A DNA stretch of 61,089 nucleotides from a virus. Taxonomy: Duplodnaviria; Caudoviricetes. This document shows, piece by piece, positions 2,169 through 61,089 of the stretch. The position numbers and the translations under genes are program-made. Under the pieces are notes generated by a model, which saw only the letters and a program-made list of their open reading frames with translations, did no database searches and had not been told where the DNA came from. Numbering within the stretch: the first letter of the stretch is position 1; each line of letters starts with the position of its first letter. The stretch covers positions 1 to 61,089 of the IMG/VR virus record IMGVR_UViG_3300031658_000007. One strand, 5' to 3'.

Positions 2169-4637
2169 TTACACTACGCCCAAGATTAGAGCATTATCAT
2201 GATAGTTACCTACTAATGTATCATAATTATAGAAGCTAGAGAAGTCATATTGCATAGGACCAGCCATGTACCTTAAAGTATCTGGGCTACGTAAGTATGC
2301 TAGGTAGGTCGGGTTTAGTCCAGACTCCTGAGCTTCTATAAGACCAGCTATTTCCTGTGACCTAGTATTGAACTCATCATTTATCCTAGCTGACTCTTCT
2401 CTAAGAGCCATAAGGTCTGAATTTATATCAGCTGTTAGTATATCTGAGAAAGTAGTTACAGCATTTAAAACACTAGCAGGGTCAGAAAATAATGTACTTC
2501 CACCACCTGTTTGAAATGTTAAGTAAACTGCTACTGCAGCTACTACTGCTTTTAAGAAGTCGTTGTCTATAGTATTTATTATAGCTATAGCTACTGTCAT
2601 TATAATGTAGTTTGATATTATTTTTATAAAGAATTCCTTACCTAAAGTAGCGGGATTAAAGGTTATAACAGCAATAACTATAAGAATAAACTCCATAAAT
2701 GAAGCGAATAAGCTAGTTTCGTACCACTCTAAATGAGTTAGTGTAACACCGTAAAAGTTTAATCTTAATGATGCATTAAGTAATTCTATCTGCTCTAAAG
2801 GTGTTAAAGAGTTAACAGAAAAGTTAGAGATAAGTACAGTAAAGTTACTATTACCTAACTTGGAAACACTCATATTCTCATTTCCGTTACCAGCTATGAA
2901 ATCAATTCCAGATAAATCATTTAGTACTATAACTGAACACGTAGTAGGATTAATTTGTTTACGCATAGTTAATGTAGTTATAGAAGTAACAGAATGGTTA
3001 TATGTACCTACACTACCAATAACAAGTGCCTGTGTTGAAGCAGACTGAGTAGACCAAACTAAGGCTTTCTTAACGTTTTGCTCTATGAAAGTAGCGTAGT
3101 AGCCTTCGTCATTAAGATCACTATTAAAATTAACAGCTTGTGTTGTTACTAAACCATAGAACATTTCGTAAAGTATTTTTGATACTACTTTAGAAGTATC
3201 TGTAGGGTTTACAGCGAAAGTTAAAAACACCTCTGGTACGTTAGCTATATCAGGATTTTCCTCTACCTGTGTCATTATATCTTCAAAGTTTAAATCTAAA
3301 GTATCAAGTAACGCTACTGTGCCATCGTAGTTAGCTTGTCCTTCAGTAGCTACACTTACTGTTTCGTTACTCTCTCTTAAAATACCTATAGGCATCATTT
3401 CAAGATTTGTAACAGTACTGTAAACTCTTCTTACTTCAGGAAAGGTATTAGTAGTTAAATCATAAAGCCAATACCTCCACTCACTAGATGATGTAACCCA
3501 GTACGTAGCTATAACGTATACTTTTATAGGATACGCACTGTAACTAAGCGTAGTAGAAATAGTAGCAATTGAAGCAGAAGGCATAGTTGTATTATCTGTT
3601 TGTACAGAATTAGCTGCTGCCCACGTTATGTTTGTTGTTATTGAAGACTTACCTACAGCTAGTGAAGTCAGTTCAAAACTAGTTTGTGTAGATATACTAC
3701 TAATACTAACTGCCATACTTACACTACCAGAAGATAATACACCTCCTGTTGTACCTATAGTAAAAGTAGCAGTGGTACTATTTGCTGGTATAACTACACT
3801 AGAAACACCAGTGTAATGAGTGCCATTTACAGCACTTCCTGTGTAAGCTAGGTTTACTGTTACTGTGTTACCAGAAGGAACAGGTCTGTCTATGCTTATT
3901 GTATAGCTAGTGGTAGTGTTTCCTTGCTGTACTTCAGAAGGACCAGATAAGTAAAAGGTAGTAATTGGTCTTATTCTGGTAATTGGCATACTGTAAGTAT
4001 TGTTACCAGCGTTGTACGTAATAGCTCCTAGTGCGTAATTTGTCCAAGTACCATAAGCGTCTGTGTAAGTAAGAGTGTTAGACCAAGGGTGGTATGAAAA
4101 GTTGTCTTGTAGGTAATGCTTATAGTACTCTTCTTTAGATGGGTGTCTCTCAGTTACAGTAATAAGTGTAGGTGAACTGCTGGGTGTGCCATATGGTCTG
4201 TTAGGAACATATATATTTAGAGCATCTACAATTGCAGATTTATTTATACTACTTGTTTTTATATTTGAAGTAGGCAGCTCATAAGGGTAAGCACCAGATT
4301 CTGCAAAAGTGTAGTAGCCGTCTATCATAACTGATCCCATAAACGCATGTTTTATAAAAGCAGAAGTTAAAGGAACATCAGGATTTTTAGTATGTTCTAC
4401 AGCAATTTTTGTTATAGCATCACTTTCTAAGTCCATAGAATCAGGGTAAAGTTTTTGTGATACTAACTGAACATTAACTACAGTCTGGTCTTCTATACCG
4501 AATACTCCAGCAACTATCTCTAGTGCTGGCATTACTATTTCATCCCATATTCCCTCAACGATTCCAGTAACAACATCATCTACTACCTCTATGATGTCGT
4601 CTATGATGTCGTCTATGATTTCTACTAGGTCACTCAT
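2169..4637 (-). CDS. Structural/tail protein (N4 gp53-like position) with Calx-beta/Ig-like insert and C-terminal hydrophobic helices
   Basis: 822 aa; VTVNLAYTGSAVNGTHY...VVIPANSTTATFTI resembles Calx-beta; 2-3 hydrophobic segments near aa 645-715. Confidence 0.6.
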   Translation of the reverse strand: MSDLVEIIDDIIDDIIEVVDDVVTGIVEGIWDEIVMPALEIVAGVFGIEDQTVVNVQLVSQKLYPDSMDLESDAITKIAVEHTKNPDVPLTSAFIKHAFMGSVMIDGYYTFAESGAYPYELPTSNIKTSSINKSAIVDALNIYVPNRPYGTPSSSPTLITVTERHPSKEEYYKHYLQDNFSYHPWSNTLTYTDAYGTWTNYALGAITYNAGNNTYSMPITRIRPITTFYLSGPSEVQQGNTTTSYTISIDRPVPSGNTVTVNLAYTGSAVNGTHYTGVSSVVIPANSTTATFTIGTTGGVLSSGSVSMAVSISSISTQTSFELTSLAVGKSSITTNITWAAANSVQTDNTTMPSASIATISTTLSYSAYPIKVYVIATYWVTSSSEWRYWLYDLTTNTFPEVRRVYSTVTNLEMMPIGILRESNETVSVATEGQANYDGTVALLDTLDLNFEDIMTQVEENPDIANVPEVFLTFAVNPTDTSKVVSKILYEMFYGLVTTQAVNFNSDLNDEGYYATFIEQNVKKALVWSTQSASTQALVIGSVGTYNHSVTSITTLTMRKQINPTTCSVIVLNDLSGIDFIAGNGNENMSVSKLGNSNFTVLISNFSVNSLTPLEQIELLNASLRLNFYGVTLTHLEWYETSLFASFMEFILIVIAVITFNPATLGKEFFIKIISNYIIMTVAIAIINTIDNDFLKAVVAAVAVYLTFQTGGGSTLFSDPASVLNAVTTFSDILTADINSDLMALREESARINDEFNTRSQEIAGLIEAQESGLNPTYLAYLRSPDTLRYMAGPMQYDFSSFYNYDTLVGNYHDNALILGVV

Positions 4638-12940: not shown

Positions 12941-13458
12941 AACTTGACTCCTCTGCTACCAAACCACCAAAGTACTGCTGTAACTGTTAGAAATACAGCT
13001 TGATTTATAATATGTGAGTACAATGTGTAAAGATCTGATACAGGAAGTGAGTTCAAACCTCCTAGTAACGCACTAATGTTATATGTTATAAACGTTACTA
13101 TAACTAGTAGGTATATAGTTATGGCAGGTCGCATTAGTGAACGTACACCGTCAATCCATTTAATACCAACTGGTTTAGACGAAACTAATTGAGATGCTGT
13201 AAATGCTTCTCCTGCTGATATTTCACTTTGTATATCAGCTTCTGCGATAGTCATATCAATTTTTTTATCAGCCATTGCTAAAGCTTGTTCTGACTCAGCC
13301 GCATCACGCTTTAAATCAACTTCAGCCATTGATAACTCATGAAGATTATTTAATTCATCGCTCTTGCGTTGCTCACGTTTAGCCATGTAGCTACCAACTA
13401 AACCGACAATCGCACCTAATCCTGATGAACTAGCTATTCCAAGAATTGCATCTAACAC
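12937..13458 (-). CDS. GTA-type 3TM holin-like protein
   Basis: N-terminal glycine-rich TM, RSLMRPAIT and C-terminal WWFGSR motifs. Confidence 0.7.
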   Translation of the reverse strand: MLDAILGIASSSGLGAIVGLVGSYMAKREQRKSDELNNLHELSMAEVDLKRDAAESEQALAMADKKIDMTIAEADIQSEISAGEAFTASQLVSSKPVGIKWIDGVRSLMRPAITIYLLVIVTFITYNISALLGGLNSLPVSDLYTLYSHIINQAVFLTVTAVLWWFGSRGVKL

Positions 13459-13859
13459 GGAGTATCTCCAATAATGTGTAAATTAAAACTTTTCTTACTT
13501 TGTAACTTGTTAAATTTAACTAAAGCCGTACCAGAACTTAAAACAGCAGGTAAACCAGATAGCCTACCTTTTCTAGACCCTAATATAATACAGCCTTTAC
13601 TGTGACTAGCCAAGTTTCCTTTGTGTATAAGTATGCCAGATCTTTTACTTACTGACTTAATATGCCAAACTTTTTGGTATTTTCCACTGCCAGAACGTGG
13701 AAGGTAGTCTACAACATAACGTCCTGCTGGTATGCAGCTGACATTAGATCTATTATCTAACCAAGGTCTTTCTATAGTAACAAACTGTTGTCCATTAGCT
13801 ATAAGAATACCGTAGGTATGAGTTTTAAAGTACTGTCTTATAAGGAAAATAGTATTCAT
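13452..13859 (-). CDS. DUF5675-family protein (putative endolysin)
   Basis: TIERPW.DN...SCIPAG.Y, ILIH.GN...S.GCIILG motifs; next to holins. Confidence 0.8.
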   Translation of the reverse strand: MNTIFLIRQYFKTHTYGILIANGQQFVTIERPWLDNRSNVSCIPAGRYVVDYLPRSGSGKYQKVWHIKSVSKRSGILIHKGNLASHSKGCIILGSRKGRLSGLPAVLSSGTALVKFNKLQSKKSFNLHIIGDTPC

Positions 13860-16654: not shown

Positions 16655-17079
16655 TGTTTATTCTCTTGGTCATTTAGCACAATTGCTAGTACCTGATCAC
16701 CGTAAAGTGGGTGATCGGGTTTTGGGGTTTTTACATGTAGTATAAAATCTGCATCGAAATAATCGCTAGGCCAGCGATACTCGCTGTTTCCTACGATGTA
16801 CATTGCGTCTTCTGGGTGCGTAAAATCACATAACTCAGTGGATTCAAACCCATCCCGTTCTTCTTCAATCACAACGATAGGGTGATCACCACCGAGCATA
16901 ACTTCGTCAACCGAATCAACTAGTTGAAGTGATACGCCGTAGGTATGCATCAGTGACCAGTAGTGGCATTCAAAGCGTTGCTTTCTAACAGGGTCATCAC
17001 ACTCAGGATGGGGATAAAACCCCACAATAAAGATGTGAGGGTCTGATGCTTTAGTTCGTTTGTATGCCTGTGTGATCAC
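16651..17079 (-). CDS. SPOUT (SpoU/TrmH/TrmL-like) methyltransferase-fold protein
   Basis: Start revised to GTG 17079, overlapping the upstream TGA (142 aa); DFTHPEDAMYIVGNSE and LHVKT....LYGDQVLAIVLND resemble SPOUT knot motifs 2 and 3. Confidence 0.6.
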   Translation of the reverse strand: MITQAYKRTKASDPHIFIVGFYPHPECDDPVRKQRFECHYWSLMHTYGVSLQLVDSVDEVMLGGDHPIVVIEEERDGFESTELCDFTHPEDAMYIVGNSEYRWPSDYFDADFILHVKTPKPDHPLYGDQVLAIVLNDQENKQ

Positions 17080-17987
17080 GAGATAGTTCCAGCATATGAG
17101 CCGTATCCACCAGACCAAGAGATGTTTGAGCCGTTGCGTTGGATTGCAATACCTCTTGATCCACCAGCTCCACCACCCCAAGTTGAACTACCGCCACCAT
17201 TACCAGCTGCTCCAGCACCACCACCTGTACCACCAGATCCTGCTGTGCCAGAAACTCCACCAGAACAATGTGTTCTTGATAAAGATGCTCCACCACCCCC
17301 ACCAGCTTGAGATCCTGTGCTTCCGTAACCAGTACCGCCATTACCACCAGAGGCATATGAGTAGGAACTAGAGTTGGTACAAGTAGTAGCCCAACTGGTA
17401 CAGCCCCATTTATTACTAGTAGCACAATAGGTAGATGTGGTTCTGTCGTTTAGTATTCGGAAGCCACCACCGCCACCACCGCCACCGCCTCCACCATATA
17501 TCTGGCTGTTGTTGTCGATAGTGAGGTTGGATGTGCCTGTTGAAGACTGTATGGACATAGCACGGCCACCAGCACCACCACTATAGCCAGCAGCATTATT
17601 TCTGCCACCACCACCAGTACCACGATAACCTTTAATGCTTCCGTTTATTACTAAAGTTACGTGGTTATAACCAGTGATATTTCCAGTTTGGAATGCCCAG
17701 TTACCTGAATTACTGGCAATTGCATTACCTGTCAGGGTTACGTGAATTGGATTGCTACTATTTAGGTTGGAGAATGCAGATTGAGATGTCAATACAAAGT
17801 GTGTACCCATACTGATACTTACGTATTGGATATTAGACTTACCATGAAACTGGTTCATGGATATCTGTCCACTAGTAGGTATGCCAGAAGCACGACCATA
17901 GTATTCAGACATAGTGATAGGATGCCCTCCACCAAACTCACTTTGGAGGTTAGCGAAGCTTATTGCCCCTGAACCTTGTAGAGCCAT
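17076..17987 (-). CDS. Glycine-rich receptor-binding adhesin-like protein
   Basis: 303 aa; N-terminal SGAISF.NLQSEFGG..PI.MSEYY...P.SGQISM..F.GKS; poly-Gly motifs (IYGGGGGGGGGG) like T-even gp38-type adhesins. Confidence 0.7.
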   Translation of the reverse strand: MALQGSGAISFANLQSEFGGGHPITMSEYYGRASGIPTSGQISMNQFHGKSNIQYVSISMGTHFVLTSQSAFSNLNSSNPIHVTLTGNAIASNSGNWAFQTGNITGYNHVTLVINGSIKGYRGTGGGGRNNAAGYSGGAGGRAMSIQSSTGTSNLTIDNNSQIYGGGGGGGGGGGFRILNDRTTSTYCATSNKWGCTSWATTCTNSSSYSYASGGNGGTGYGSTGSQAGGGGGASLSRTHCSGGVSGTAGSGGTGGGAGAAGNGGGSSTWGGGAGGSRGIAIQRNGSNISWSGGYGSYAGTIS

Positions 17988-19141
17988 TACTTACTCCCCA
18001 CTATACCCTTGAGTTCCTCAATCTGAGCCTGTTGCTCTTTTATTGCTTCAATGAGTAGACCTACAATATTACCGTATGCCACTGATTTCATACCGTCATC
18101 ATTATCGTAAACGGCTTCAGGTAAAACTGCTTCTAATTCTTGAGCAATCACACCTGTAGCTCGTTCCCCATGCATATCAAAAGTTACACCACGAACACTG
18201 GTGACTTTCTCTAAAGCGGAAGGGATTGTTTCAATGTTACTTTTTAAACGTAAATCTGAATATGCTGTGATGTTACCTGAAGCAGTGAAACTACCAGAAA
18301 GGGAATTACCATTACTGGATAGGTTACTGAGTCCCACTTCGGAAGGAGTATTGATGGTGCAACTAAACGCAGTACCTGACAAAGACATGCCCGTACTTGC
18401 TGTATAAGTTGTATTGGTATCAGTATTATTATCAGGAACTACTACAGTATCAGTAGTGCCGTCACCACGATTTAGCGTGATCGTGTGTCCACTAATTGTC
18501 ATTGCATTCGCTGCAGTACTTAGTGCCTGATTGGTTGTTTTAGTGACTTTAGTAGCAAGAGCTGTAGTCAACGTGGAAGCGTAAGACGCATCGTCATTTA
18601 TTGCTGCTGCTAGTTCGTTCAGATCATTCAGAGTACTTGGAGCACCGCCAATGAGATCAGTTATCTCGGTCTGTACGTAAGCAGTAGTAGCTACCTGAGT
18701 AGTGTTAGTATTAGCTGCGGCAGTGGGAGCAGTAGGTGCGCCAGTTAACGCAGGACTAGCCAAAGGTGCTTTTGCATCTAACGCTGCTTGCAATCCAGTT
18801 GTAACAGAAATCGCATGATTTGCTGGGTGAGTATAATTATTTGAAGATGCAGCTATTCCGTTTAGTTTTGTGTGGTCAGCATCAGTAAATACATTACTAT
18901 CTGCAGCAGATTCTACTGCGGTCCTGATTTCTGCGTCTGTTTGATCTGCTGTAGCAAGCGTTTCAATAGTATCTATCTTAGTTTTATCTGCACTAGAAGG
19001 CATCGGAAAACCACCAGCAGTAGACCCGTCATGGACTACTAAAGTGTCCTTGGTTGTGTCAACAGTAACTTCACGTAATGCGCCTATAAATGCGGCGTGT
19101 TCTGAAGTCGTGCCACCACGTAGTTGTAGTAGTTTGCTCAT
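17987..19141 (-). CDS. Distal tail fibre with Mtd-N-like start and C-terminal S74 intramolecular chaperone
   Basis: LQLRGGT...EVTVDT......HDGST.GG; SPALTGAPTAPT; SDLRLKSNI...GVIAQE...VAYGNIVGLLIEAIKE. Confidence 0.85.
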   Translation of the reverse strand: MSKLLQLRGGTTSEHAAFIGALREVTVDTTKDTLVVHDGSTAGGFPMPSSADKTKIDTIETLATADQTDAEIRTAVESAADSNVFTDADHTKLNGIAASSNNYTHPANHAISVTTGLQAALDAKAPLASPALTGAPTAPTAAANTNTTQVATTAYVQTEITDLIGGAPSTLNDLNELAAAINDDASYASTLTTALATKVTKTTNQALSTAANAMTISGHTITLNRGDGTTDTVVVPDNNTDTNTTYTASTGMSLSGTAFSCTINTPSEVGLSNLSSNGNSLSGSFTASGNITAYSDLRLKSNIETIPSALEKVTSVRGVTFDMHGERATGVIAQELEAVLPEAVYDNDDGMKSVAYGNIVGLLIEAIKEQQAQIEELKGIVGSK

Positions 19142-34612: not shown

Positions 34613-34834
34613 ATGAAAACAATATGTGAGCTAGAAAAAGAAGTAGATATACTATACGAAAAAGCAATGCTATATTTAAAAGAATCAGAATCTGATTGGA
34701 GATGTTTATCTGCTCACAGTAAAGCAAGAGAATACTGGGGTAAATACCAAGTAGCATGTGATAACTTAGATATTGCTAAAGACGAAGAAACCTGTAGTTT
34801 CAGTAATGAGAGTAGTTTAAGGAAAATAAAATGA
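34613..34834 (+). CDS. Hypothetical protein
   Basis: ORF in operon. Confidence 0.6.
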   Translation: MKTICELEKEVDILYEKAMLYLKESESDWRCLSAHSKAREYWGKYQVACDNLDIAKDEETCSFSNESSLRKIK

Positions 34835-35247
34835 ATATTAATGCTTGCCCTTTTTGTCACTCAATTGATACACAAATAGTTTCTTACGAAGATGAAGGTT
34901 CTTCGCATGTATGCATAGTTTGTATCCAATGTGAAGCTAGGGGGCCAATAGCCTACTTAGATGACGAGTACAACGCGAAAGAGTACGCAACAAACCATTG
35001 GAATAATGGTATGTTCTTGACAGAGCCTGTAGTAACTAAAGTAGCTGTAATACGGGATGAAGATACTGATGTTTTAACAATCAGAGTTAGATTTACTAAC
35101 CATGAATATTCAGATATCTGCACGTTTAACACTAATAGTATAACTTTTGATGTTAAAGAGTTTATGGGGCTAACTTATGGTGAAGCACTGTCACTAAAGT
35201 TTAAAAAAGAAGAGCAACACTTTGATTCTTATATTAAAAGAAGGTAA
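34831..35247 (+). CDS. Lar-like zinc-ribbon protein (restriction alleviation family)
   Basis: CPFC...C..CEARGP...A..HWN. Confidence 0.65.
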   Translation: MNINACPFCHSIDTQIVSYEDEGSSHVCIVCIQCEARGPIAYLDDEYNAKEYATNHWNNGMFLTEPVVTKVAVIRDEDTDVLTIRVRFTNHEYSDICTFNTNSITFDVKEFMGLTYGEALSLKFKKEEQHFDSYIKRR

Positions 35248-43949: not shown

Positions 43950-44369
43950 ATGTGGGAGTGTGTTGATAAAAAAATACTTTCACATGAAGATTTACACAAA
44001 GAATGTGTATCTATTGTATACGAACTTGAGTTTGAAGACGGTACACTATACATAGGAAAACTAGTAGTTAGGTCTATGCGTAGGCTAAAGCCCACTAAGG
44101 CTCAGTTAGCTATCCGCAAAAACTACAAAAGAGTAGAACTTAAAAATATACCTTTTGTGAACTACACAGGGTCATCAGAAGAAGTTAAAGGTAAAATTGC
44201 AGTAAGAAAAGAAATACTACACCAGTGTAGCAATAAAAAAACTGCAACATATCTGGAAGCAAAAGAACTATTTACTGCTAATGTTTTATACAACGACAGT
44301 TACTTAAATAAAAATATTAGTGGTGTTTACTTTGAAAATTCGTTAGACGGATTAATTTTACTTAGTTAG
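43950..44369 (+). CDS. GIY-YIG (Seg-like) endonuclease-family protein
   Basis: IVYEL....LYIGK; Y.GSS; EIL; YLEAK; LN.NI.G; ATG 43950. Confidence 0.75.
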   Translation: MWECVDKKILSHEDLHKECVSIVYELEFEDGTLYIGKLVVRSMRRLKPTKAQLAIRKNYKRVELKNIPFVNYTGSSEEVKGKIAVRKEILHQCSNKKTATYLEAKELFTANVLYNDSYLNKNISGVYFENSLDGLILLS

Positions 44370-50719: not shown

Positions 50720-50745
50720 AAGTGGGGTGTAAAACCCCCACTTTT
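50720..50745. terminator. Bidirectional terminator between convergent units
   Basis: AAGTGGGG-TGTAAAAC-CCCCACTT hairpin with T/A-rich flanks. Confidence 0.8.
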
Positions 50746-53700
50746 ATATTATGCTTTTCATTCCTATGTAGTTCCAAGGATTCTGGAATATGCCAGTAAA
50801 AGAAGTATGCATGTTCCAAACATTTGAATCCCATATTTGTTGTGCATTAAGATTAAAGTAGTTTTCAATTGCCAGTTCTGTACCAAAACTAACTGGCTTG
50901 TTTTTAACCATTCTGTATATTGCTTTCTGTATACGAAGTCCATAGTTAGGAAAGGGAATAATTCCTACGTCACTAAGTTGTTTTATCTTTAATGGTAGAA
51001 CTTCCTTATAATCAGGAAAGGAGTCTGTAACCTCTAACTCAGCTTTCTTAGGGTCCATATCTTTAACTCCTACAAGATGCCTGTAATAAGTTTCTTTAGC
51101 TAGTATGTCTGTAAGATCAGTCATATGACTGCCTAGTTTTACAAACTCACTGTCAGGGCTATTAAGGTACTGGTGCAGGTAACTAATTAAATCATCTTCT
51201 GACTTAATGTCTTTAAGTCTTTTAGCAATTCTATTAAGCTCAGTCTCAACATTTTTAGTAGAGTCAAGGCTTCCAAACACAGGACTCAGAGTTTCTAAAA
51301 ATTCTTCTAGTCCTACATTCCATCTAGAAAAGTTCATAATGAATTTACCTATATCATTATTTTTACCTTTGTTATCTTGAAATATGGTTTTTAAAACTGA
51401 GTCTAAGTCTTTTTTAAACCCTGAAGATGGGTCATTAGCATTAACAATTAATTCAGAACCTAGAGAGTTAATGAAGCCTCTAGTCACTAAACCATTAGAA
51501 GGATGAGCTTTCAACTTATCATTTAAAAGTTTAATTTTCTTTTGCAAAGATTTATCATCAGGTCTAGCGTAACCTCTTACTCTAAGTTGTGTAAGTTCAT
51601 TTTTAATCTTTTGATAACCATCGAATTCGCTACTAATTAACCTGTAACTTTTCTGTATCTCTAGAGGGTCTACACCCATTACAGACAAGTATGACAAATT
51701 AGACATGTTATCTGCTGCTATTTTGGCTGGGTTTAAAATAACCATACTAATCTTAGCACCAGTTACAAAACTTTTAGTAATACGTAATGCCCATTTTAAC
51801 TTTGGGTCTGTAGCAATAGAGCTTTCAGTAGCACCTACTAGCCAATAGTTTATATCTTTCCTAACGTATTGAACTCTAGATTCTAGTGTACCTTTTCCAT
51901 TACTACTTTTAACATTAGATAGTTTCTTACTTTTTGGCATATAAGCTGCTTGAACTTCTTTTGGCAAGTCACTAAATTTAATGTCTTCATTCCCACCTAT
52001 AAACCAAGGATGATCTCTGTTTTTGTCTTTAATCAAGTCAGATAGGTTATCAGTTCCTTTACTCCCTAAATTCCAGTAATTAGTTTCTTCCATTATCAAA
52101 TCACGAATAATATGAGTATCAAGTATAGCCATGTTATGAGCCATAGTTCTAACTAGACCTTGTGAGGCATCTTTAACTAAACCTATTTCATTCTTGTACT
52201 TTGTCTCTAGTATGTACTTATACTTATCACCAATTTTTACTACTCTAGGGTCATGTCTCATTTCCTTACCAACAACAATGTCAGTACTTTGAGTGCGTAT
52301 GTCAGTAAAAGCACCTTCAATAAATGTACTATCTATTACTTGTTTATACACAACACCTAATGAATTTTTTGTAGGAGATTTTAAAACTTTCCACCCTGAT
52401 TTTTCTTCATAAGCGTAGTTGTTTACCTGCTCTTGGTTAACAACCTTAAACACAGTTTGTTCTTTATACTGGTCTGTCATTTGGCTATCTCTCATGTCTA
52501 ACTTAGGTATTCTACCTTCTGTTAGTATGAGTTCATTTGCTACCACTACATCTTTAACAAGATCTGCCATAGCTGTGTTGGACATAAGTTTAGTAAACCG
52601 TTGTGGACCATCCTCTATAGCTAGGATAGACTTTAGTACTACTAGCTTTCTAGCAGAAGACTTTAAGTTGTCCTGAACGCTAAGAGCATTAACATTGTAA
52701 ATAGTGTCTGTATATACTTTGTCGTTTACGTTTAACTCAACTATTGTCTCCATTTTACGTAATTGGGGTGTATCAAATAGCACCTCTAGTGCTTTTACCT
52801 CTGCATCAAAATCTGTTACACCTTCTGCGAATAGAAAGTAATCTTGAATCGCCATCTTACTTGTAAAGTCATACAAGTCAGTCTTTTCAACATCACTTAA
52901 CTTTAACTTGTTAAACTTTTGTAGTTCTTTACTAGTTAAGTCTTCTCTCCCAGAACGAGTAGCAGCAGCTAAAGACAAAACTTTATTCTTTAAATCTGTG
53001 TTTACATTAGAGTTTGTAATCTTATGTATTATTCCTTGTAGTGCTTCAGAACTATCGTAAATTCCTTTAATTTTATCTAGTGTAGTCGCATATAAAGGAA
53101 AGTTTGTCCTCATAAAGTCGTCTACCCACTTAATTCCCTCACCAGATTTATTAACTAATGGGTCATTAATACGCCTAGCTATAGAAGCATTCATAAGCTC
53201 AACTGCTCCACTTATTCCATCAGAATTTATAGGAGAAGCTGCAAACAAATCTTTACCATACCAAGTTTGAATTGCTTTTATATTAGCAATATTTGTTTCT
53301 CTTTCACTAGTACCTTCAGCAATTACTGAATTAATAGCCGTATACAACTTACCAGCGTCTACATCATTAGTTACAACATCTCTATAAGAAACAGAAGATA
53401 ACATTTCTTTAACTTTAGCTTTGACAAAAGCAATAACTTTTTTAAGCCTAGATTTATTACTGTCACCTAAAGCTTTATATACTTTTTTAGCTACTTCAGA
53501 CTCAGAATTCATAATAGCTATAAACTCTGCTAATCTAGTGGCTTCTCCTCCTGTATTGTCAAGAGCGTATTTTAAGCGGTTTATAGTAGTATTGTCTAAA
53601 ACTATTCTGCCTGAGTCTATATTGTCACGAAGCCTGTTCATGCTTTTAGATATGTAAGCAAGATTAAGGTCTAGCTGCGGACTAGTTGATTTAACGTTGT

Positions 53701-56700
53701 TAGATCTATTAATTGCCCAATCAGAAATTAAACCAATAGTATAGCTGTGTGTAATTTCGTGTTCAATTAACTCAATTAAATTTTTGCGGCCTTTAGCAGT
53801 TTTTATACTCTGAACACTGCCACCAGTACGATCATCTTTATCAGATATAACAATAGTGTCATTATCAGTATCAAATTTATTCTGAGATCCTTTTATTACT
53901 GTTGAAGAATTATTTTCTGTAAGAAACTTACTAATTACTGCAGATTCTGAAGCTAGGTCTTCTAGTATGTCTGTTTCAGACAAAGAAGAATCTTTAAAAG
54001 ATTTTTTAGGTTTAGGTTTAGGTTTTACAATAGACGTTGGCACAAGACCATCACCTATGACACTAAGAGTTTTAAATCCACGAGACTCTTCTAGTATTTC
54101 CTGCTTTACTGATTTTTCCTTGCGTATAGTATCAAGCAAACTCACAAAATCTGAATCTTTTTTTAATGAAGGATCATATGCAAGAGCAGCCATTAATGCC
54201 TGTTCGTGTATATCAAAATCAAATGCAGCATTAAAATCTTGTTCTACGTACTGACCTTCAAACTCCATAAGAGCAGGTGCAGAAGTACGTGTATCATCGT
54301 GGATACTTATTGATCCTGTTTCATGTTTAGTAGGTAAACCAGCTATGCCTCTGTACTGGTTGCTAGTGTCTACACCATGTACTTGAGACACACCAAGAAC
54401 AGTAGGTTGAAGTTTATCTTCTCTTGTTAATACTGTTTCACCGTCAACAGTATTTTGAACTTCAAATACTTTAGTTAACGGTAAACCAAAATCTTTAAGG
54501 TGTTCTTTTGTGTAAGATAAAGCTTTGCCACCGTTAAAAGCTTCTACAACTGCAGCAGCAGGATACATTCTCATTTTACTGAGAAGAGGATTGTTGTTTA
54601 AAAATTTAAATACTTGTTCACTACGTTTTCTGTAAGTAGCTAAGTATTCTGTAACTAGCGAATCAGTTAAAGTATCAAACAAGAAAGAAGGCATACCAGA
54701 ACTAGCAAATGCTTTTCTTAGCTCGTCTTTAATATTTCTGTCATCTCGAAGTGCGTCTCTGCCTTCTTGATTATTTTTGTGGTCTGTACCAAGTAACTCA
54801 TTAACTAAATCTATTGTGTCACTAGAAACCTTAATTTTATTTAAATTAGCAACTAACAAACCACTAAAAGTATTAGACAAAGAATTGTTAGCACCCTCTT
54901 CAGACTGTTGGTAAATAAAAGTCATTGTCGGTCCTTTGGACAATTCTCTTATGTCTCCGTTATAAAGATCTTTAGATACTAAATCTACAATTTTCTTTAT
55001 TTTGTCATTGTTTTCATTTTCTCTAACGTAAAAGTCATCTAAGTCAGTAATGTTATTAACAAAGTTTTCAAGCTTAACTTTAAGAATTCCGTATATGTCT
55101 TTTAACTTATCTTGTGTGTCTACTTCACCATCAAGTAACCCAAGTCTTTGCATAAGTTTTTTTATACTGCTAGGATTTGTCCCAAGTGCTTGTTTAAGTA
55201 TCAGCTGTCCACCAGATGCTGTAGCGTCACTGCTGACCATATAAGAGGTCTTAATAGTTTTACTACCTAGTGAATCTCTTATACCTTTAGCAGCTCTTAC
55301 AGTAGTTACAATGTCTGCAAAATCAAGATGCGGAAATAACCCTTGTAACTGAGTTAGTTGTTTTAATTTTCCTGCAGCCGTGTCTTTACTGACAAACTTA
55401 TCATACATTTCAAATGCTTGAGTGAGAGTTTTACCTTCTTCAGTAACGTTATCAGAATCTAAAAGTACTTCAGGAGTACTATTTCCTTCAAAGTCTGTTA
55501 AACCTAGACGTAAAGCAACTTTGTTTACGTAAAAATTATATACTTCAGAACCTACAGACATTTCATATTCAGAAATAGTTAAAGCATGACGCATTAATTT
55601 AGACGCTTGTGGGTTAACAACACTATTTTCGTAATATAATCTTGCGTTTTTACCACCAAACATAGGCATATACAGACTTGCTGCTTTTCCGTTAGCGTCT
55701 GTCATATGGTCGTAGTATTCAATTAAATCATCTACAGGAGTAGTTTTAGATAAATTACGACCTACATGACTAGATTGGTCAGCAAGGACAATATTAATTT
55801 TTTCTACTTTAAACAGATTTTTTAACGTTTCTGTATCCTTAATGTGATTTGATATCCATTTAGAAGCACTCATGTCACTGTCTTTTAGTTCTTTGTGCAA
55901 AAGATCAAAAAAACTGTGTAAATCAGAGTCTATAAACACTGGGTTAGACTCAAGTTCTTTACGTGCTGCTTCCATTTCTGGTGTAAGAGTATAAGCGTCT
56001 TGATTTTTTCGCTCTTTTATAGGAGAAGTAGAAGGTAAAGTAATATTACTTGGTTGAGACACGTAGTTAATAGATTCAATCACTTTAACGTATGCTGATA
56101 AAGGATGGTTGTTTATGTCAATAATAGATTTATCAGTAAAATATTTTTTAGCAGATGACTTAGCAGTAACATCAAATGCTTTAAGATTTAACTCTACCAC
56201 AGAAACTTCTGTAGTAACTTTTTCACTGTAATTACGTTTACTTGATATGTCATCAAGATAGTCTTTTATAGACCCTCTACCTTCGTGTACAGAAATAAAT
56301 CCGTTGTCCTGTAAGTTGTTGATAGCTACCATACCTGAACGATAATAAGCACGTTCTACGTCTACAGCAGACCCTTTACTGTCACTTATTTTTTTAAATC
56401 TATAACCTTCTAGATATAAAATTTTACGTCCTATAGTAGCAGCTAGTCGGTGAAGAGGAATATATGGGTTAACACCGTCATTACTAATGTCATTAATATT
56501 AACATTTTCGTTGCCAGCTTTGTCAATTTCACCTTTTATTGAGTCCATTATGTCTTTAAGTGCAATAGCTTGGTGTCTTGCAGACTTATCACTAGTAGTC
56601 TGTACACCATTGACTGTAACAGTCTGTAAACTTTTAACAAAAGTCTGCATTGCAGGTCGGAATTTTTCTGCTACGTCTAAGGATCTATCCAGTTTTCCCT

Positions 56701-56884
56701 TAATGCGTTTAGAGTCTACTTGAACATCTTTAGAAGAGAAGGATTCAAACATATCCATAACTTTTTTATCAGTTATTTCCCAGACATTCACCCTAGTTTC
56801 TTTATCAGTATTTCGGTCTATTTCGACATCTTTAGCTATGTTTCGTAACATACCTTTAACTGTGTTTCTTGGTGTACAGCTCAT
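50744..56884 (-). CDS. Virion RNA polymerase (N4 vRNAP-like), polymerase plus C-terminal domains
   Basis: 2046 aa; NARLYY..NPQ.SKLMR, motif A SDATASG, motif B RELSKGPTMTFIY, motif C IHDD; zincin HEITH; single Cys. Confidence 0.85.
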   Translation of the reverse strand: MSCTPRNTVKGMLRNIAKDVEIDRNTDKETRVNVWEITDKKVMDMFESFSSKDVQVDSKRIKGKLDRSLDVAEKFRPAMQTFVKSLQTVTVNGVQTTSDKSARHQAIALKDIMDSIKGEIDKAGNENVNINDISNDGVNPYIPLHRLAATIGRKILYLEGYRFKKISDSKGSAVDVERAYYRSGMVAINNLQDNGFISVHEGRGSIKDYLDDISSKRNYSEKVTTEVSVVELNLKAFDVTAKSSAKKYFTDKSIIDINNHPLSAYVKVIESINYVSQPSNITLPSTSPIKERKNQDAYTLTPEMEAARKELESNPVFIDSDLHSFFDLLHKELKDSDMSASKWISNHIKDTETLKNLFKVEKINIVLADQSSHVGRNLSKTTPVDDLIEYYDHMTDANGKAASLYMPMFGGKNARLYYENSVVNPQASKLMRHALTISEYEMSVGSEVYNFYVNKVALRLGLTDFEGNSTPEVLLDSDNVTEEGKTLTQAFEMYDKFVSKDTAAGKLKQLTQLQGLFPHLDFADIVTTVRAAKGIRDSLGSKTIKTSYMVSSDATASGGQLILKQALGTNPSSIKKLMQRLGLLDGEVDTQDKLKDIYGILKVKLENFVNNITDLDDFYVRENENNDKIKKIVDLVSKDLYNGDIRELSKGPTMTFIYQQSEEGANNSLSNTFSGLLVANLNKIKVSSDTIDLVNELLGTDHKNNQEGRDALRDDRNIKDELRKAFASSGMPSFLFDTLTDSLVTEYLATYRKRSEQVFKFLNNNPLLSKMRMYPAAAVVEAFNGGKALSYTKEHLKDFGLPLTKVFEVQNTVDGETVLTREDKLQPTVLGVSQVHGVDTSNQYRGIAGLPTKHETGSISIHDDTRTSAPALMEFEGQYVEQDFNAAFDFDIHEQALMAALAYDPSLKKDSDFVSLLDTIRKEKSVKQEILEESRGFKTLSVIGDGLVPTSIVKPKPKPKKSFKDSSLSETDILEDLASESAVISKFLTENNSSTVIKGSQNKFDTDNDTIVISDKDDRTGGSVQSIKTAKGRKNLIELIEHEITHSYTIGLISDWAINRSNNVKSTSPQLDLNLAYISKSMNRLRDNIDSGRIVLDNTTINRLKYALDNTGGEATRLAEFIAIMNSESEVAKKVYKALGDSNKSRLKKVIAFVKAKVKEMLSSVSYRDVVTNDVDAGKLYTAINSVIAEGTSERETNIANIKAIQTWYGKDLFAASPINSDGISGAVELMNASIARRINDPLVNKSGEGIKWVDDFMRTNFPLYATTLDKIKGIYDSSEALQGIIHKITNSNVNTDLKNKVLSLAAATRSGREDLTSKELQKFNKLKLSDVEKTDLYDFTSKMAIQDYFLFAEGVTDFDAEVKALEVLFDTPQLRKMETIVELNVNDKVYTDTIYNVNALSVQDNLKSSARKLVVLKSILAIEDGPQRFTKLMSNTAMADLVKDVVVANELILTEGRIPKLDMRDSQMTDQYKEQTVFKVVNQEQVNNYAYEEKSGWKVLKSPTKNSLGVVYKQVIDSTFIEGAFTDIRTQSTDIVVGKEMRHDPRVVKIGDKYKYILETKYKNEIGLVKDASQGLVRTMAHNMAILDTHIIRDLIMEETNYWNLGSKGTDNLSDLIKDKNRDHPWFIGGNEDIKFSDLPKEVQAAYMPKSKKLSNVKSSNGKGTLESRVQYVRKDINYWLVGATESSIATDPKLKWALRITKSFVTGAKISMVILNPAKIAADNMSNLSYLSVMGVDPLEIQKSYRLISSEFDGYQKIKNELTQLRVRGYARPDDKSLQKKIKLLNDKLKAHPSNGLVTRGFINSLGSELIVNANDPSSGFKKDLDSVLKTIFQDNKGKNNDIGKFIMNFSRWNVGLEEFLETLSPVFGSLDSTKNVETELNRIAKRLKDIKSEDDLISYLHQYLNSPDSEFVKLGSHMTDLTDILAKETYYRHLVGVKDMDPKKAELEVTDSFPDYKEVLPLKIKQLSDVGIIPFPNYGLRIQKAIYRMVKNKPVSFGTELAIENYFNLNAQQIWDSNVWNMHTSFTGIFQNPWNYIGMKSII

Positions 56885-56887
56885 AGT

Positions 56888-59797
56888 TTATACCGCGCAA
56901 ACATCGTCTTTACTAAAGTTATTATCAATAAATTCATCTAATTGCTCATCTGTGACAATTTCATCTATTAACCACATACCATTTTCGTCAACTTCAAGTT
57001 GCCCACTGGGGGGTACAGGAACAGAGCTATCTCGTTGAGTAGTTTCTGTCTCTGTTTGTGTATCAGCAGTCTTTAGAGCTGTCTCTATACTACCACGGTA
57101 AGATTCTATATTCCCTTTTTTACCTATGTCTGGTAACACATTTACCATTATAGCTAGTAACGCACCAGCTTCGGTAGTTTCAAATAGCTTACTAGCTGCT
57201 TGTATAAATTTTGTAGATGATACTAATTTTATAGTGTCAGCTAACATTGCTTCTTTATCTGCTGGGTCAGTTAAAGCATCTCTTTTTTGTTCTTCTAATT
57301 TCAGACCAGCTATAAACTTATTAGTCTGAGGACTTGTTTTAATAACATAAGAAGTTTTAGTGTCTACATCAGTTACTTCACTATCTGTCTTATCTTCTGA
57401 GTTAAATATACTACTATTAATAATAGAACTAACTAAAGATTCTACTTTAGTTGCAGTAGACTTTGCGACTTCTGTAACTTTTTCAGCTGCACTTGCTACT
57501 TTTCCAGCGACAGTACCTTTAAAAACTTTTCGGTATCTATCAAGTTTACGGTTAATTGTATCTAGTGTTTCTTTGTCTAGTGAATTAGAGCTATCAGGTG
57601 AGTAACTTTCATTACTTGTGTACAAGTCTAAAACTTTTTGTACTGTTTCAACTGTATCTATGTCTTCTAGCTTAACTTTAGAAACTTCCAGTAATTCAGC
57701 TGCTACAGCACTCATACTACCTACAGGTATGGCTTGTCTTCTAGCTACTGACTTTATAACAGGACTAAGCCCCCCTAAATTTACTAGTCCTTCTACTACA
57801 CGACCAGATGATAAAGAAGCTCTTTCTCTTCTGTCAGCAAGAGTATCTAGCTTTGCTGAAAGCTTAGGCATTGTGCTGCTTAGAGCGTTAGATAGCTTAC
57901 GTATGGTTTCAGGTGTGTTTTCTCTTACTTCTGCTTCAAGAGATTGCAGACCTTCCTTAGTAGCGTTATTACCGTAAGAAACAGCTTTTTCAGCCAGTCC
58001 ATAAGTTGCTGAAGTATTAAAAGTTTTTAGTTCTTCGATAGCAGCAGTACTTACAACTTTAGCAGCAGTTATTACTTGTTCTATAGCATCATCAGGTAAG
58101 TTAACAAAAGCAGCAGCTTTCTTAGCAAGTAAAACAGCTTCTTCAGAGGCTTGTTTAGTTTTTGATGCGGCAATCTTATAGTAAAAATTAGACTCTAACT
58201 TTATTTTAGAAAGAGCTACGTCAGATTCGTACTCTCTAATAATACTATTTTTAACTCTGTTAAAAACTTTTTCATTATTTAAGTCATCAGTTTTTGCAAC
58301 CTTACCTAGTTCTTCTTCTAAATCAGGATCAGTAATATCTGCAAAACTTGTGGCTTTACTAAGTGTTTCTTTTCTTGCACTTGTACTAGTCTTAAATTCT
58401 TCATGTTGAGCTTTAGCTATTTCATACTCATTACGTATTTCATTAGTTTGTTCGTCAGAAAGGTATTTACTAAGTTTTTTGGCATTTCTTTCACTAGCAA
58501 ACTTGTTAGTTGCCAAAACTGCTTTTTTGCCTAATTTAAACGTAGTTTTTGCTGTACCTACAGTAGCGTCTGCTGCTACTCCAATACCAACAGCAGGAAC
58601 TGTAGTAAGACCTTTAGTGCCAGAACCAGCACCGAATCCTAGTGCAGCACCTAACTTTGCTTCAAATTGGTTTTCAGGGTTGTTTATTTCTGCTTTTACT
58701 GCATTCCAAAATTCACCTTTCTGTGCTGCTGTAGCATTTACGTTTATTATTTCTCCCCAAGTTTGGGCATACTCTTGTAATCCTTCAGCAGTACCAGCGG
58801 CACCTAGTTTTACAACACCTTTCCCAAGACGTTTAGCTATGCTTACTAAGCTAGAATCTTTACTCATAGACTTAATAGCTGTTGTTATGTCATTTTTTAA
58901 ATGTTTAGCAAAATTAGGTATAACTAGGTTTTTAATTATAGCTGGTTCAAATATAGTAGTAGAAAGATTCACAAGATACATTTGTGCTACTTCAGAAGTT
59001 GTAGGATTTCTTGAATTTTTCTCACGAAAGTCATTTACTTGTCGTTGAGTTAAATCTGCATTCATTACACTTACTTGAGCAGCAGATTTAGCTACTGCTT
59101 TACTAGCAGTAATAAGTTTAGAAGCTTTTTTAGTCTTATCTACAGCGTCTACAATAGCGTTAGCACCTTTGTATAACTTGTATGCTTTATTGGCAAGGGC
59201 TGTTATACCTATAGCACTAGCTACTGCTGGGGCTAACGCAGTTGTTCCTGCAATTGCTGCAGTAGTAGCAACAGCTGTACCTATACTACCAGAACTATCA
59301 GAAATAGTAGCTGGAGCAGCAAGAACCGAATTCTTTAGAACATCCCAATAGTTGCCTTCAGCAAGTGACTCAGTAACTCTTCTCTGTGGTGCGTCTACTA
59401 ACCTTTCACGATCTTGTAACGAAACACCAGAAGCTAAGTCAGCATCTGCCCTGTTTTCTGCATTAGTTCTTTCTTCCCCAGTAAATATGTCTGATATGTT
59501 TGTACCAGTTTGACGAAAACCAGACTCCATAATATCTAGGTAGTTACTATTACCATTACTTTGTTCTGGTGTAAATGCCCCCCCAGCAAGACTCATTGGG
59601 TTATTTGGCAAATAAGGATTAACAACAGGATTAACAACAGGGTTAGTATCTGGAATACCAGTAGTAACTTCTGATGGAGCTAGGCGTTCTTGTTTTTCAG
59701 CTATCCTAGAATTCAATATCTCCTTCTTTTTATCGAATAGAGACTGTGTGTATATTGGTTGAAAGGCAGCAGTAGGATCGTAAAAGGGATCAGCCAT
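56888..59797 (-). CDS. Ejection protein equivalent to the N4 vRNAP N-terminal domain
   Basis: 969 aa; Ala/Gly hydrophobic stretches and AEGLQEYAQ motif; same frame as the vRNAP, separated by TAA-ACT. Confidence 0.7.
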   Translation of the reverse strand: MADPFYDPTAAFQPIYTQSLFDKKKEILNSRIAEKQERLAPSEVTTGIPDTNPVVNPVVNPYLPNNPMSLAGGAFTPEQSNGNSNYLDIMESGFRQTGTNISDIFTGEERTNAENRADADLASGVSLQDRERLVDAPQRRVTESLAEGNYWDVLKNSVLAAPATISDSSGSIGTAVATTAAIAGTTALAPAVASAIGITALANKAYKLYKGANAIVDAVDKTKKASKLITASKAVAKSAAQVSVMNADLTQRQVNDFREKNSRNPTTSEVAQMYLVNLSTTIFEPAIIKNLVIPNFAKHLKNDITTAIKSMSKDSSLVSIAKRLGKGVVKLGAAGTAEGLQEYAQTWGEIINVNATAAQKGEFWNAVKAEINNPENQFEAKLGAALGFGAGSGTKGLTTVPAVGIGVAADATVGTAKTTFKLGKKAVLATNKFASERNAKKLSKYLSDEQTNEIRNEYEIAKAQHEEFKTSTSARKETLSKATSFADITDPDLEEELGKVAKTDDLNNEKVFNRVKNSIIREYESDVALSKIKLESNFYYKIAASKTKQASEEAVLLAKKAAAFVNLPDDAIEQVITAAKVVSTAAIEELKTFNTSATYGLAEKAVSYGNNATKEGLQSLEAEVRENTPETIRKLSNALSSTMPKLSAKLDTLADRRERASLSSGRVVEGLVNLGGLSPVIKSVARRQAIPVGSMSAVAAELLEVSKVKLEDIDTVETVQKVLDLYTSNESYSPDSSNSLDKETLDTINRKLDRYRKVFKGTVAGKVASAAEKVTEVAKSTATKVESLVSSIINSSIFNSEDKTDSEVTDVDTKTSYVIKTSPQTNKFIAGLKLEEQKRDALTDPADKEAMLADTIKLVSSTKFIQAASKLFETTEAGALLAIMVNVLPDIGKKGNIESYRGSIETALKTADTQTETETTQRDSSVPVPPSGQLEVDENGMWLIDEIVTDEQLDEFIDNNFSKDDVCAV

Positions 59798-59798
59798 G

Positions 59799-61089
59799 TT
59801 ATTTTCCTATTATTCTATTTGTCTCTTTTTGTCTTCTAATAGTAGAATTTATTAAGGCAGATCTTTTACCTTTAACTCTACTCTTTTCTAGCTTATACAT
59901 AGCTTTTATTACACGTTCATTATAATTAGTACTTTCAGGAGAACCTACACCAGATATTTCTCCTAACTCAACAGCTAGTTTTCCACGCTCTAGTAGTTGT
60001 TCTTTCATGAAAGAAGACATATTTTTACTGTAAACACCGTTACCTACTATTACTTCATTTAATGTTGTAGTAACAAACAATTTGTCTAACTCTGCGTTGT
60101 ACTTAGGATCTACTTTATTAAACTCTTCTACTTGTTTAGACACTACTGAGATATTAGGGTTTACACCAGTTACTAAGGGTTCAGTAGAGTTTACTACAGA
60201 TTCACTAGGGTTTACTGCATATTCATTAGGGTTTACTGGGTTTACGCCAGAAGTTACTAAAGGTTCCACAGAATCTTCTGCAGTTACACGAGAATTTACT
60301 AAAGATTCGGCAATAGTATTAGGTTGTGAACCCTTACGACTATCTTTACGGAATATAGGGGTATTTATAGGTCTACCAGTAAATATAGAAGGCTCCTTCC
60401 AGTTGTTAGCAGATCTTTCTTTTTCAAGATTAAAAATAGTTGTTACAATAGCATTAGTTCTATCAGCACCTTTTAAGTTTTCTATATTAGGAATACTTAA
60501 TGTTCCCTGTTCTAAGCCAGCGTTACCTCTTTTTATCATTTCTGATTTAGTTCTGTGTTTTAGTGTATTAACAGCCCACTCAGGTCTACCTTTCAAATCT
60601 TTATTTGGATCTAGGGAATTAAATATTTGTGTAAGATTCTTCTGGTACTCACCAAGTTCTCTAGAATCTTCTTTATTTGCCTTAATAAACTCTGCTTGTT
60701 TATCAGCTTTTCGGTTAAGTATTCTGTTCAATTCTGATGTATTTTTAACTTCATCTGTAAAAAGTACATCAGAAAGCTCTACGCCTTCAGGTGGTTTTTC
60801 ACTGTTAAACTTGTTACTTAAATTTTCATAATCTTCATCGTAACGGTCCAGTTCTCCTTGTTGTTTAGCTGTTAGACTATCAAATGCTGTTACCACAGTT
60901 GGAGAATTTACACTATTATCTGTACTTACTTCTTTATCTTTACCAGTGAAAATTTTGTTAGGAGCTACTACACTAGCTACGTCAGTGTTTACTTCACTTC
61001 TTTCACCACTTTCACTACTTTCACTAAGTAACTTATTCAGTGTAACAACATCTTTAGTACCTGTAGTATCTGTAGTACCTGTTTTAGTA
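59799..61089 (-). CDS. 3' part of the origin-spanning virion protein
   Basis: Frame is open from the window end to the stop at 59799; in frame with ATG 1498 through the overlap. Confidence 0.8.
   Translation of the reverse strand, partial: TKTGTTDTTGTKDVVTLNKLLSESSESGERSEVNTDVASVVAPNKIFTGKDKEVSTDNSVNSPTVVTAFDSLTAKQQGELDRYDEDYENLSNKFNSEKPPEGVELSDVLFTDEVKNTSELNRILNRKADKQAEFIKANKEDSRELGEYQKNLTQIFNSLDPNKDLKGRPEWAVNTLKHRTKSEMIKRGNAGLEQGTLSIPNIENLKGADRTNAIVTTIFNLEKERSANNWKEPSIFTGRPINTPIFRKDSRKGSQPNTIAESLVNSRVTAEDSVEPLVTSGVNPVNPNEYAVNPSESVVNSTEPLVTGVNPNISVVSKQVEEFNKVDPKYNAELDKLFVTTTLNEVIVGNGVYSKNMSSFMKEQLLERGKLAVELGEISGVGSPESTNYNERVIKAMYKLEKSRVKGKRSALINSTIRRQKETNRIIGK
60956..61089. repeat. Terminal overlap, right copy
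   Basis: Identical to 1-143 minus one 9-bp unit. Confidence 0.95.

Follow-up and report, generated by a model that had tools for sequence, protein, structure and literature searches.

Single cysteines at the cut ends of a split N4-type virion RNA polymerase probably join its pieces end to end by a disulfide

The virion RNA polymerases (vRNAPs) of coliphage N4 (gp50, 3500 amino acids, aa) and Pseudomonas phage DEV (gp71, 3398 aa), both Schitoviridae, are each a single chain without cysteine (Cys). N4-like ejected proteins avoid this residue, and the published reason, as given in the relevant sections of PMC11445570 and PMC3821669, is passage through the tail and the periplasm. Here we describe a vRNAP of this type that is encoded as two proteins, of 969 and 2046 aa, in the IMG/VR virus record IMGVR_UViG_3300031658_000007 (Duplodnaviria; Caudoviricetes); the whole stretch analysed, positions 1 to 61,089 (61,089 nucleotides, nt), is called the window below. 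Like gp50 and gp71, the window proteins comprise an N-terminal domain (~1000 aa, here a separate protein), a T7-type polymerase domain as well as a large C-terminal domain (CTD) with an HExxH motif, and Cys is suppressed in the ejection operon. They differ in being two open reading frames (ORFs) in place of a single ~3500-aa polypeptide, and in having one Cys per piece, at the cut, where the N4 and DEV chains have none. Beyond the C-terminal end, their sequences have weak similarity to N4. A sequence-only reading of the window had described the N4 enzyme as one Cys-free chain, which the count for gp50 bears out, and had proposed that the gene was split and its halves re-tethered by a disulfide. 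The split is real and is found across the family, and comparison of relatives, together with a structural precedent from another phage, strongly supports the re-tethering.

Divided vRNAP-like genes have been reported before. In Alteromonas phages AltAD45-P1 to P4 the gene lies in two pieces (ORF127 and ORF126), and the stop between them was verified by polymerase chain reaction (PCR), according to the relevant sections of PMC3821669 (2013); these describe ORF127 as having two cysteines, hence its protein as not injected, and draw no link to the split. Elsewhere, split vRNAP genes have been concatenated or ascribed to read-through (PMC10654107, in the sections concerned, where the separation is treated as rare and possibly read-through). 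By our count, the 2481-aa protein of AltAD45-P1, which holds the N-terminal and polymerase domains, has its sole Cys at position −3, and the next protein has its sole Cys at position 4. This cultured marine phage therefore resembles the window in its split gene and in the sole Cys at each facing end, but its cut falls at the boundary between polymerase and CTD, not between N-terminal domain and polymerase. In the RefSeq record (NC_021532; L119 4624-16306) the two vRNAP-like ORFs, with one Cys each, are given only a misc_feature, 'potential frameshift'. AltAD45 was left unmatched by tblastn with the family proteins P0087 or P0049 as query, and was matched with P0126.

The precedent for the bond comes from the cyanopodophage A4. 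Its pre-ejectosome, solved by electron cryo-microscopy (cryo-EM), contains a disulfide between gp27 Cys1715 and gp26 Cys5 (PMC12002296, 2025), which the sections of that paper dealing with it give as a detail that stabilises the one structure described, with no rule drawn from it. In the record of Anabaena phage A-4L, gp27 (1717 aa) has its sole Cys at 1715 and the adjacent gp26 (1114 aa) its sole Cys at 5. The likeness to the window lies in adjacent genes for giant ejection proteins, the upstream one having its sole Cys near the C-terminus and the downstream one near the N-terminus; the difference is that no polymerase is involved, and hhalign of these proteins against the window pieces gave probabilities of 0.2% and 0.3%, that is, no detectable homology. 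A-4L gp28 (1058 aa; L117 25321-28497) carries two Cys only, at 1036 and 1039 close to the C-terminus, a CxxC arrangement rather than a terminal single Cys. Disulfides are also on record in other virion parts of a podophage (PMC10172136, relevant section). The Cys-free giant vRNAP, the split gene of AltAD45 and one terminal disulfide are thus already known; our literature search found no paper linking these facts or stating a rule for terminal Cys.

Both window genes lie on the minus strand, where an ORF of 969 codons (59797..56888) is followed by one of 2046 (56884..50744), as given by the ORF list of the window and its translations. The features of the locus are:

56888..59797, minus strand: N-terminal (injection or membrane) domain of the vRNAP as a separate 969-aa protein (ORF, Cys count, profile match to fused relatives)
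56897..56899, minus strand: TGC codon of Cys967, third residue from the C-terminus (sequence; invariant column in 16 proteins)
56885..56890, minus strand: TAA stop (56888-56890) and ACT spacer (56885-56887), identical in contigs of three runs; relatives differ in spacing
56876..56878, minus strand: TGT codon, encoding Cys3 of the 2046-aa protein (in an alignment of 25 homologs, the first column past M1 that does not vary)
54071..56884, minus strand: single-subunit (T7/N4-type) RNA polymerase domain, residues 1 to ~938 of the 2046-aa protein (profile, invariant residues)
50744..54070, minus strand: CTD of the vRNAP, residues ~939-2046 (PHROG 2206, tblastn, HExxH)

The junction reads GTA TAA ACT ATG AGC TGT, so that the two ORFs are in frame across a 3-nt spacer, as the sequence-only reading had stated. 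Its Cys count was also exact when repeated by script: the 969-aa protein has exactly one Cys, residue 967 (tail ...DDVCAV*), and the 2046-aa protein exactly one, residue 3 (start MSCTPR...). The 60 longest ATG-started ORFs of the window have 140 Cys in 17,837 residues (0.78%), a rate at which ~24 would be expected in the 3015 residues of both proteins. If each protein had one Cys placed at random, the chance that both fell within three residues of the facing ends would be about (3/969) × (3/2046), or 5e-6.

The TAA codon is bridged with 0 differences by Logan contigs of runs X2, X5 (word depth 425) and X8. All 18 runs listed are marine metagenomes; X2 and X5 may be the source sample, and X8 is not flagged as such. 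The stop is real and not an assembly error: it stands without change in contigs of three marine runs, and relatives have the split too, at other spacings and in other frames. The idea that a sequencing or assembly error made the stop, the Cys residues being there by chance, has a negligible probability: it is refuted by these contigs and by the comparison of junctions below, in which dozens of relatives have the same split with varied spacings, and the AltAD45 stop was PCR-verified (PMC3821669, in part).

By sequence comparison, the two genes encode the N-terminal domain and the polymerase plus CTD of an N4-type vRNAP, made separately. This follows for the downstream protein from its match to PHROG 2206 'virion RNA polymerase' (E 2.7e-31; residues 1702-2026 on profile positions 3109-3378 of 3406), from tblastn matches to the vRNAPs of LIT1/DEV-type phages, and from a profile built on the first ~930 residues of this protein and 15 relatives (16 domains). 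That profile spans residues 1-935 of the window protein (P0001 in our set) and, over the motif B region, matches PDB chains of T7 RNA polymerase (E 3e-4). The window protein alone has no Pfam match, and two relatives match PF00940 above the cut-off (P0173, 28.3 bits; P0180, 22.2 bits). Across 25 aligned polymerase proteins M1 and C3 are invariant, and residues of the polymerase domain such as D553, R646, K650, Y658 and D863 are invariant too. Residues 297-463 align by hhalign with N4 gp50 1318-1471 (E 7.7e-4, probability 25%), and this offset places residue 1 of the window protein near gp50 residue ~1000, at the boundary of the N-terminal and polymerase domains. The polymerase homolog P0006 (2272 aa) has an insert in the linker between polymerase and CTD, at about residues 985-1180, with a YDIETTG stretch, which we take to resemble a DnaQ-type exonuclease motif.

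The 969-aa protein has no Pfam or PHROG match; residues 171-205 are an Ala-rich hydrophobic stretch. Its assignment comes from a profile of 16 upstream proteins, which matches the N-terminal parts of two fused relatives, the 2761-aa P0120 (E 1.4e-20) and P0151 (E 7e-9). Against N4 gp50 itself the same profile gave E 0.039, which is not significant.

The nearest cultured relatives, Alteromonas phages PT11-V19 and R22Y, have the same split (37% identity on the polymerase protein, 27% on the upstream protein), with sole Cys at 997/1000 and 6/2082, and at 1004/1008 and 6/2083, respectively; no paper on PT11-V19 was found in the literature search. A scan of viral contigs for close relatives with a single protein returned nothing, and a word-based search with the 969-aa protein matched only itself. 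Each of the 10 polymerase homologs from a protein collection (26-100% identical) carries a single Cys, placed at position 3-7.

A set of 33 distinct junctions was assembled from IMG/VR and metagenome loci, the two phage records and the window, with both sides present in 32. Conservation of the terminal pair, on which the sequence-only reading depended, proved complete in this set: in 32 of 32 two-sided junctions the upstream protein's single Cys lies 0-8 residues before the C-terminus, and the downstream protein has a Cys at position 3-7 in all 33. The only other Cys are C2028 (L084) and C1000 (L098); the former, in one polymerase variant (L084 4716-11144), is lacking in the near-identical L074 and L090. 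The set is diverse, its 37 distinct polymerase proteins falling into 31 clusters at 70% identity and 21 at 50%. Among 16 upstream proteins, 13-29% identical to that of the window, just six columns are invariant (M1, E338, E342, W347, G387 and C967), and the residues flanking both Cys are otherwise variable. Spacing between the genes ranges from overlaps of 8 nt to spacers of 16 nt, and all frames occur. The in-frame arrangement in the window itself means nothing, and read-through or frameshifting at the stop was rejected, since spacing and frame vary among relatives.

The nearly invariant HExxH motif of the downstream protein (residues 1042-1046; 53747-53761, minus strand; IEHEIxHSYT), which lies just past the polymerase domain, invites the thought that the two thiols bind a metal ion or cluster, perhaps shared among copies, as a reversible clasp. 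The motif is described for N4 (PMC13434306, relevant section) and is regarded in the N4 and DEV papers as a possible zinc site; moreover, several vRNAP copies are present per virion (PMC13434306, in part), and the four thiols of two pairs could form one site. The motif is, however, equally conserved in the Cys-free gp50 (residue 2228) and gp71 (residue 2091), and so is independent of these thiols; a zinc clasp that includes it was set aside on that account. No further conserved His, Cys or Asp stands beside either Cys, the variable distance of 0-8 residues from Cys to chain end suits a flexible tether better than a fixed metal site, and a metal clasp would not survive unfolding in the tail. 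We therefore regard metal binding as very unlikely.

The association of Cys with the cut holds across the wider family. The polymerase-domain profile was searched with HMMER against 1.84 billion cluster representatives, giving 278 matches at E ≤0.001, of which the best 150 of 278 were listed. Together with the proteins found earlier, 153 of these matched the profile locally; 18 fragments were dropped and 135 representatives of at least 900 aa kept. A Cys within the first 10 residues is present in 104 of 106 proteins that start at the polymerase domain, versus 0 of 29 in which the N-terminal domain is fused. At the other end, a Cys within the last 10 residues is found in 36 of 44 proteins that end after the polymerase domain, versus 0 of 91 with a fused CTD. 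All 12 fully fused forms are Cys-free, and the 135 representatives have just six internal Cys in 276,924 residues. No Cys occurs at the native ends in either the junction or the family set, whether at the N-terminal domain's N-terminus or at the CTD's C-terminus, as end-joining predicts.

Shared descent was addressed with a FastTree phylogeny of the 135 polymerase domains, which has 18 architecture changes and contains 14 independent pairs differing in the split between polymerase and CTD. The C-terminal Cys tracks this split in 7-8 of the 14 pairs and runs opposite to it in 0 (sign test, median p 0.008), while the crossed controls showed no association. For the split between N-terminal domain and polymerase there are 2-3 independent pairs, and its link to Cys therefore rests on few origins but long retention. 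It is near certain that the Cys pair belongs functionally to the split.

Relatives encoded in three pieces extend the pattern to a second cut. In record G001 the upstream protein ends ...NPPECKV, and the polymerase protein is cut again, in the linker between polymerase and CTD. The resulting middle protein (1003 aa) has Cys at positions 3 and 1000 only (...KVCLAN), and the CTD protein (1280 aa), encoded ~7 kb away, has its sole Cys at position 6 (MALKGC...). The record L019, 58-67% identical to G001, is fused at that point and has no Cys there; by blastp, G001 polymerase residues 1-952 match L019 1-955, and CTD residues 445-1280 match L019 1050-1883. Further CTD genes of the three-piece kind start MALAGKNGC (L059) and MALKNC (L063), the latter read from a GTG start with GGAGA 8 nt upstream; reading from the first ATG would leave no Cys. 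A word-based search with the CTD returned 39 long ones (≥1600 aa), all 39 with exactly one Cys in the first 10 residues, and 31 shorter ones, 19 of which have a sole Cys at positions 6-10. The ~7 kb of genes between the polymerase and CTD genes of G001 (L098 8968-12980, L023 388-4180) contain ORFs of 737, 595 and 413 aa (6, 3 and 6 Cys, respectively), and similar ORFs precede the CTD gene in L059.

At many junctions the genes overlap (ATGA or TAATG) as coupled genes typically do, and the Cys might then serve non-covalent docking of the ends, or their codons translational coupling, with no bond formed. Yet the Cys pair is kept where 7 kb separate the genes, neither the codon positions nor the adjoining residues are constant, and the strict avoidance of Cys elsewhere in these chains points to thiol chemistry and not to packing. 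Docking or coupling is for these reasons a highly improbable explanation.

The reading that we favour is that the Cys pair forms an inter-chain disulfide in the virion, joining the split pieces end to end, and from the comparison of sequences and the A4 analogy we consider this likely. An end-to-end covalent joint is suggested because Cys occurs at each broken end only, one on the end pieces and two on the middle piece, against a Cys-avoiding background. A bond elsewhere would be the alternative: each terminal Cys might be linked to a third virion protein (portal or core), to a second copy of the same chain as a homodimer, or to a small covalent modification, so that the ends are anchored separately. 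Sequence alone cannot tell which thiols pair, and counts of 1, 2 and 1 in the three-piece form also fit one anchor per broken end. The solved case, A4, is nevertheless a hetero bond from an upstream C-terminal Cys to a downstream N-terminal Cys, and the Cys come in facing pairs and never at native ends, which a general need for anchoring would not predict. Separate anchoring is unlikely.

Modification fares no better in particular forms. The sequence-only reading had offered S-acylation by an acyl carrier protein (ACP) and ketosynthase (KS) cassette, for which there is no basis, as PF00550 and PF00109 are unmatched in the window and Pfam scans of 30 window ORFs returned no ACP or KS. Bacterial lipoproteins have a signal peptide with a lipobox ahead of the Cys; here the Cys at positions 3-7 has no signal peptide before it. 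In a split intein, an N-intein of ~100 aa starting with Cys forms the upstream C-terminus, and a C-intein stands ahead of the downstream Cys, Ser or Thr. The junctions have just 0-8 residues after the upstream Cys and 2-6 before the downstream one, and the Pfam scan found no intein family.

Several points weigh against a disulfide between the pieces. The bond is known from the cyanophage A4 structure, and in split N4-type polymerases it is proposed from sequence comparison; A4 is an analogue and not a relative, because its gp26 and gp27 show no homology in sequence to the two window proteins. Since virion assembly takes place in a reducing cytoplasm, the bond would have to form by oxidation at a later time, and a search of the window, whose record is rated incomplete, found no thioredoxin or glutaredoxin gene. 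The upstream C-terminal tail around the Cys is poorly conserved and variable in length. The genes of the three-piece lineage lie 7 kb apart, and translational coupling therefore cannot set 1:1 amounts there. There are also exceptions to the rule: two of the 106 polymerase-first proteins lack an N-terminal Cys, P0085 being N-truncated and P0119 looking whole, and eight of the 44 that end after the polymerase domain lack a C-terminal one. Two of these eight (P0073, P0133) are clearly cut short, and truncation at contig ends is a possible, unverified cause for the other six (P0068, P0071, P0074, P0085, P0098, P0114). Among the 31 shorter CTD-type proteins, 12 are Cys-free; at least two are known 5'-truncated fragments and the others are unverified. 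P0119 (2231 aa, polymerase plus CTD; start MGFAKKVET) is Cys-free and sits on a long branch beside the fused P0102, and is either a true exception or a protein with a mis-called start.

Two further analyses are neutral. A complex predicted from the upstream protein's last 130 residues and the polymerase protein's first 860 scored 0.19 against a mark of 0.32, which weighs neither way, and a search of the window for an Erv thiol oxidase had no match, but its control matched nowhere either, so that it says nothing.

If the pieces are joined by a disulfide, the following mechanism can be proposed. The giant polymerase would be encoded as two proteins, cut in the linker between the N-terminal and polymerase domains, each piece staying Cys-free, as ejected proteins are, apart from a single Cys close to its broken end, a few residues away. 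Cys967 of the 969-aa protein and Cys3 of the 2046-aa protein would form their inter-chain bond inside the released virion, in oxic sea water. Such a bond, from C-terminus to N-terminus, would make the two chains topologically one unbranched thread, like the fused N4 protein. The linked thread could survive unfolding and pass the tail channel in fixed order and 1:1 stoichiometry, which a non-covalent complex would not survive. In the reducing cytoplasm of the host the bond would then be reduced, freeing the polymerase and CTD from a membrane-associated N-terminal piece. The timing of the bond (probably after release into oxic sea water), its role in threading and the release of the polymerase by reduction are all inferred; redox-controlled release after ejection, as the sequence-only reading had put it, would be a reasonable consequence of the disulfide.

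The same signature occurs outside the N4-type polymerases. In Cellulophaga phage phi14:2 (Crassvirales; L121 998-17201), g067 has a Cys at its last residue, g066 at positions 3 and −2, and g065 at position 3. As in the window, these are consecutive giant virion proteins, three in this one crAss-like phage with the virion RNA polymerase gp66 in the middle, and Cys occurs only at the facing ends. The gp66 polymerase is presumably of a kind unrelated to the N4-type. Terminal disulfide stapling may therefore be a general rule for giant proteins injected by short-tailed phages, under which linker cuts are tolerated if the broken ends gain Cys, the virion rejoins the thread, and the cytoplasm cuts it and frees the polymerase; we put the chances of such a rule at about even. 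Stapling would have arisen several times, because the pattern is seen in three unrelated sets: split N4-type polymerases, crAss-like cargo proteins and A4 gp27-gp26.

Both N4-like and crAss-like phages pose the problem of how several very large proteins can leave the head by way of a narrow tail in the correct order and number. A reducible end-to-end link, if true, would explain the avoidance of Cys everywhere except at cut ends, the delivery of one thread from split genes, and the freeing of the polymerase inside the cell. An annotation problem would thereby become a testable mechanism, for which cultured phages are at hand (PT11-V19, R22Y, AltAD45 and phi14:2), and terminal Cys would offer a simple means of recognising ejected proteins, and the order they take, from the sequences of uncultured phage genomes.

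One further gene adjoins the locus:

59799..61088, minus strand: gene upstream of the 969-aa ORF, extending past the window end; candidate further ejection protein, by position only (ORF list)

It has no Pfam or PHROG match. Its 246-aa ATG-started part has 0 Cys, as do the ORFs at the equivalent position in relatives (454-613 aa). Other Pfam matches in the window are to a SegE-type GIY-YIG endonuclease, a Lar-like restriction alleviation protein, DUF5675, a Gp38-like adhesin and a fibre protein (Mtd_N and Peptidase_S74 chaperone domain), the coordinates for these genes being 43950-44369 and 34831-35247 on the plus strand, and 13452-13859 and 17076-19141 on the minus strand.

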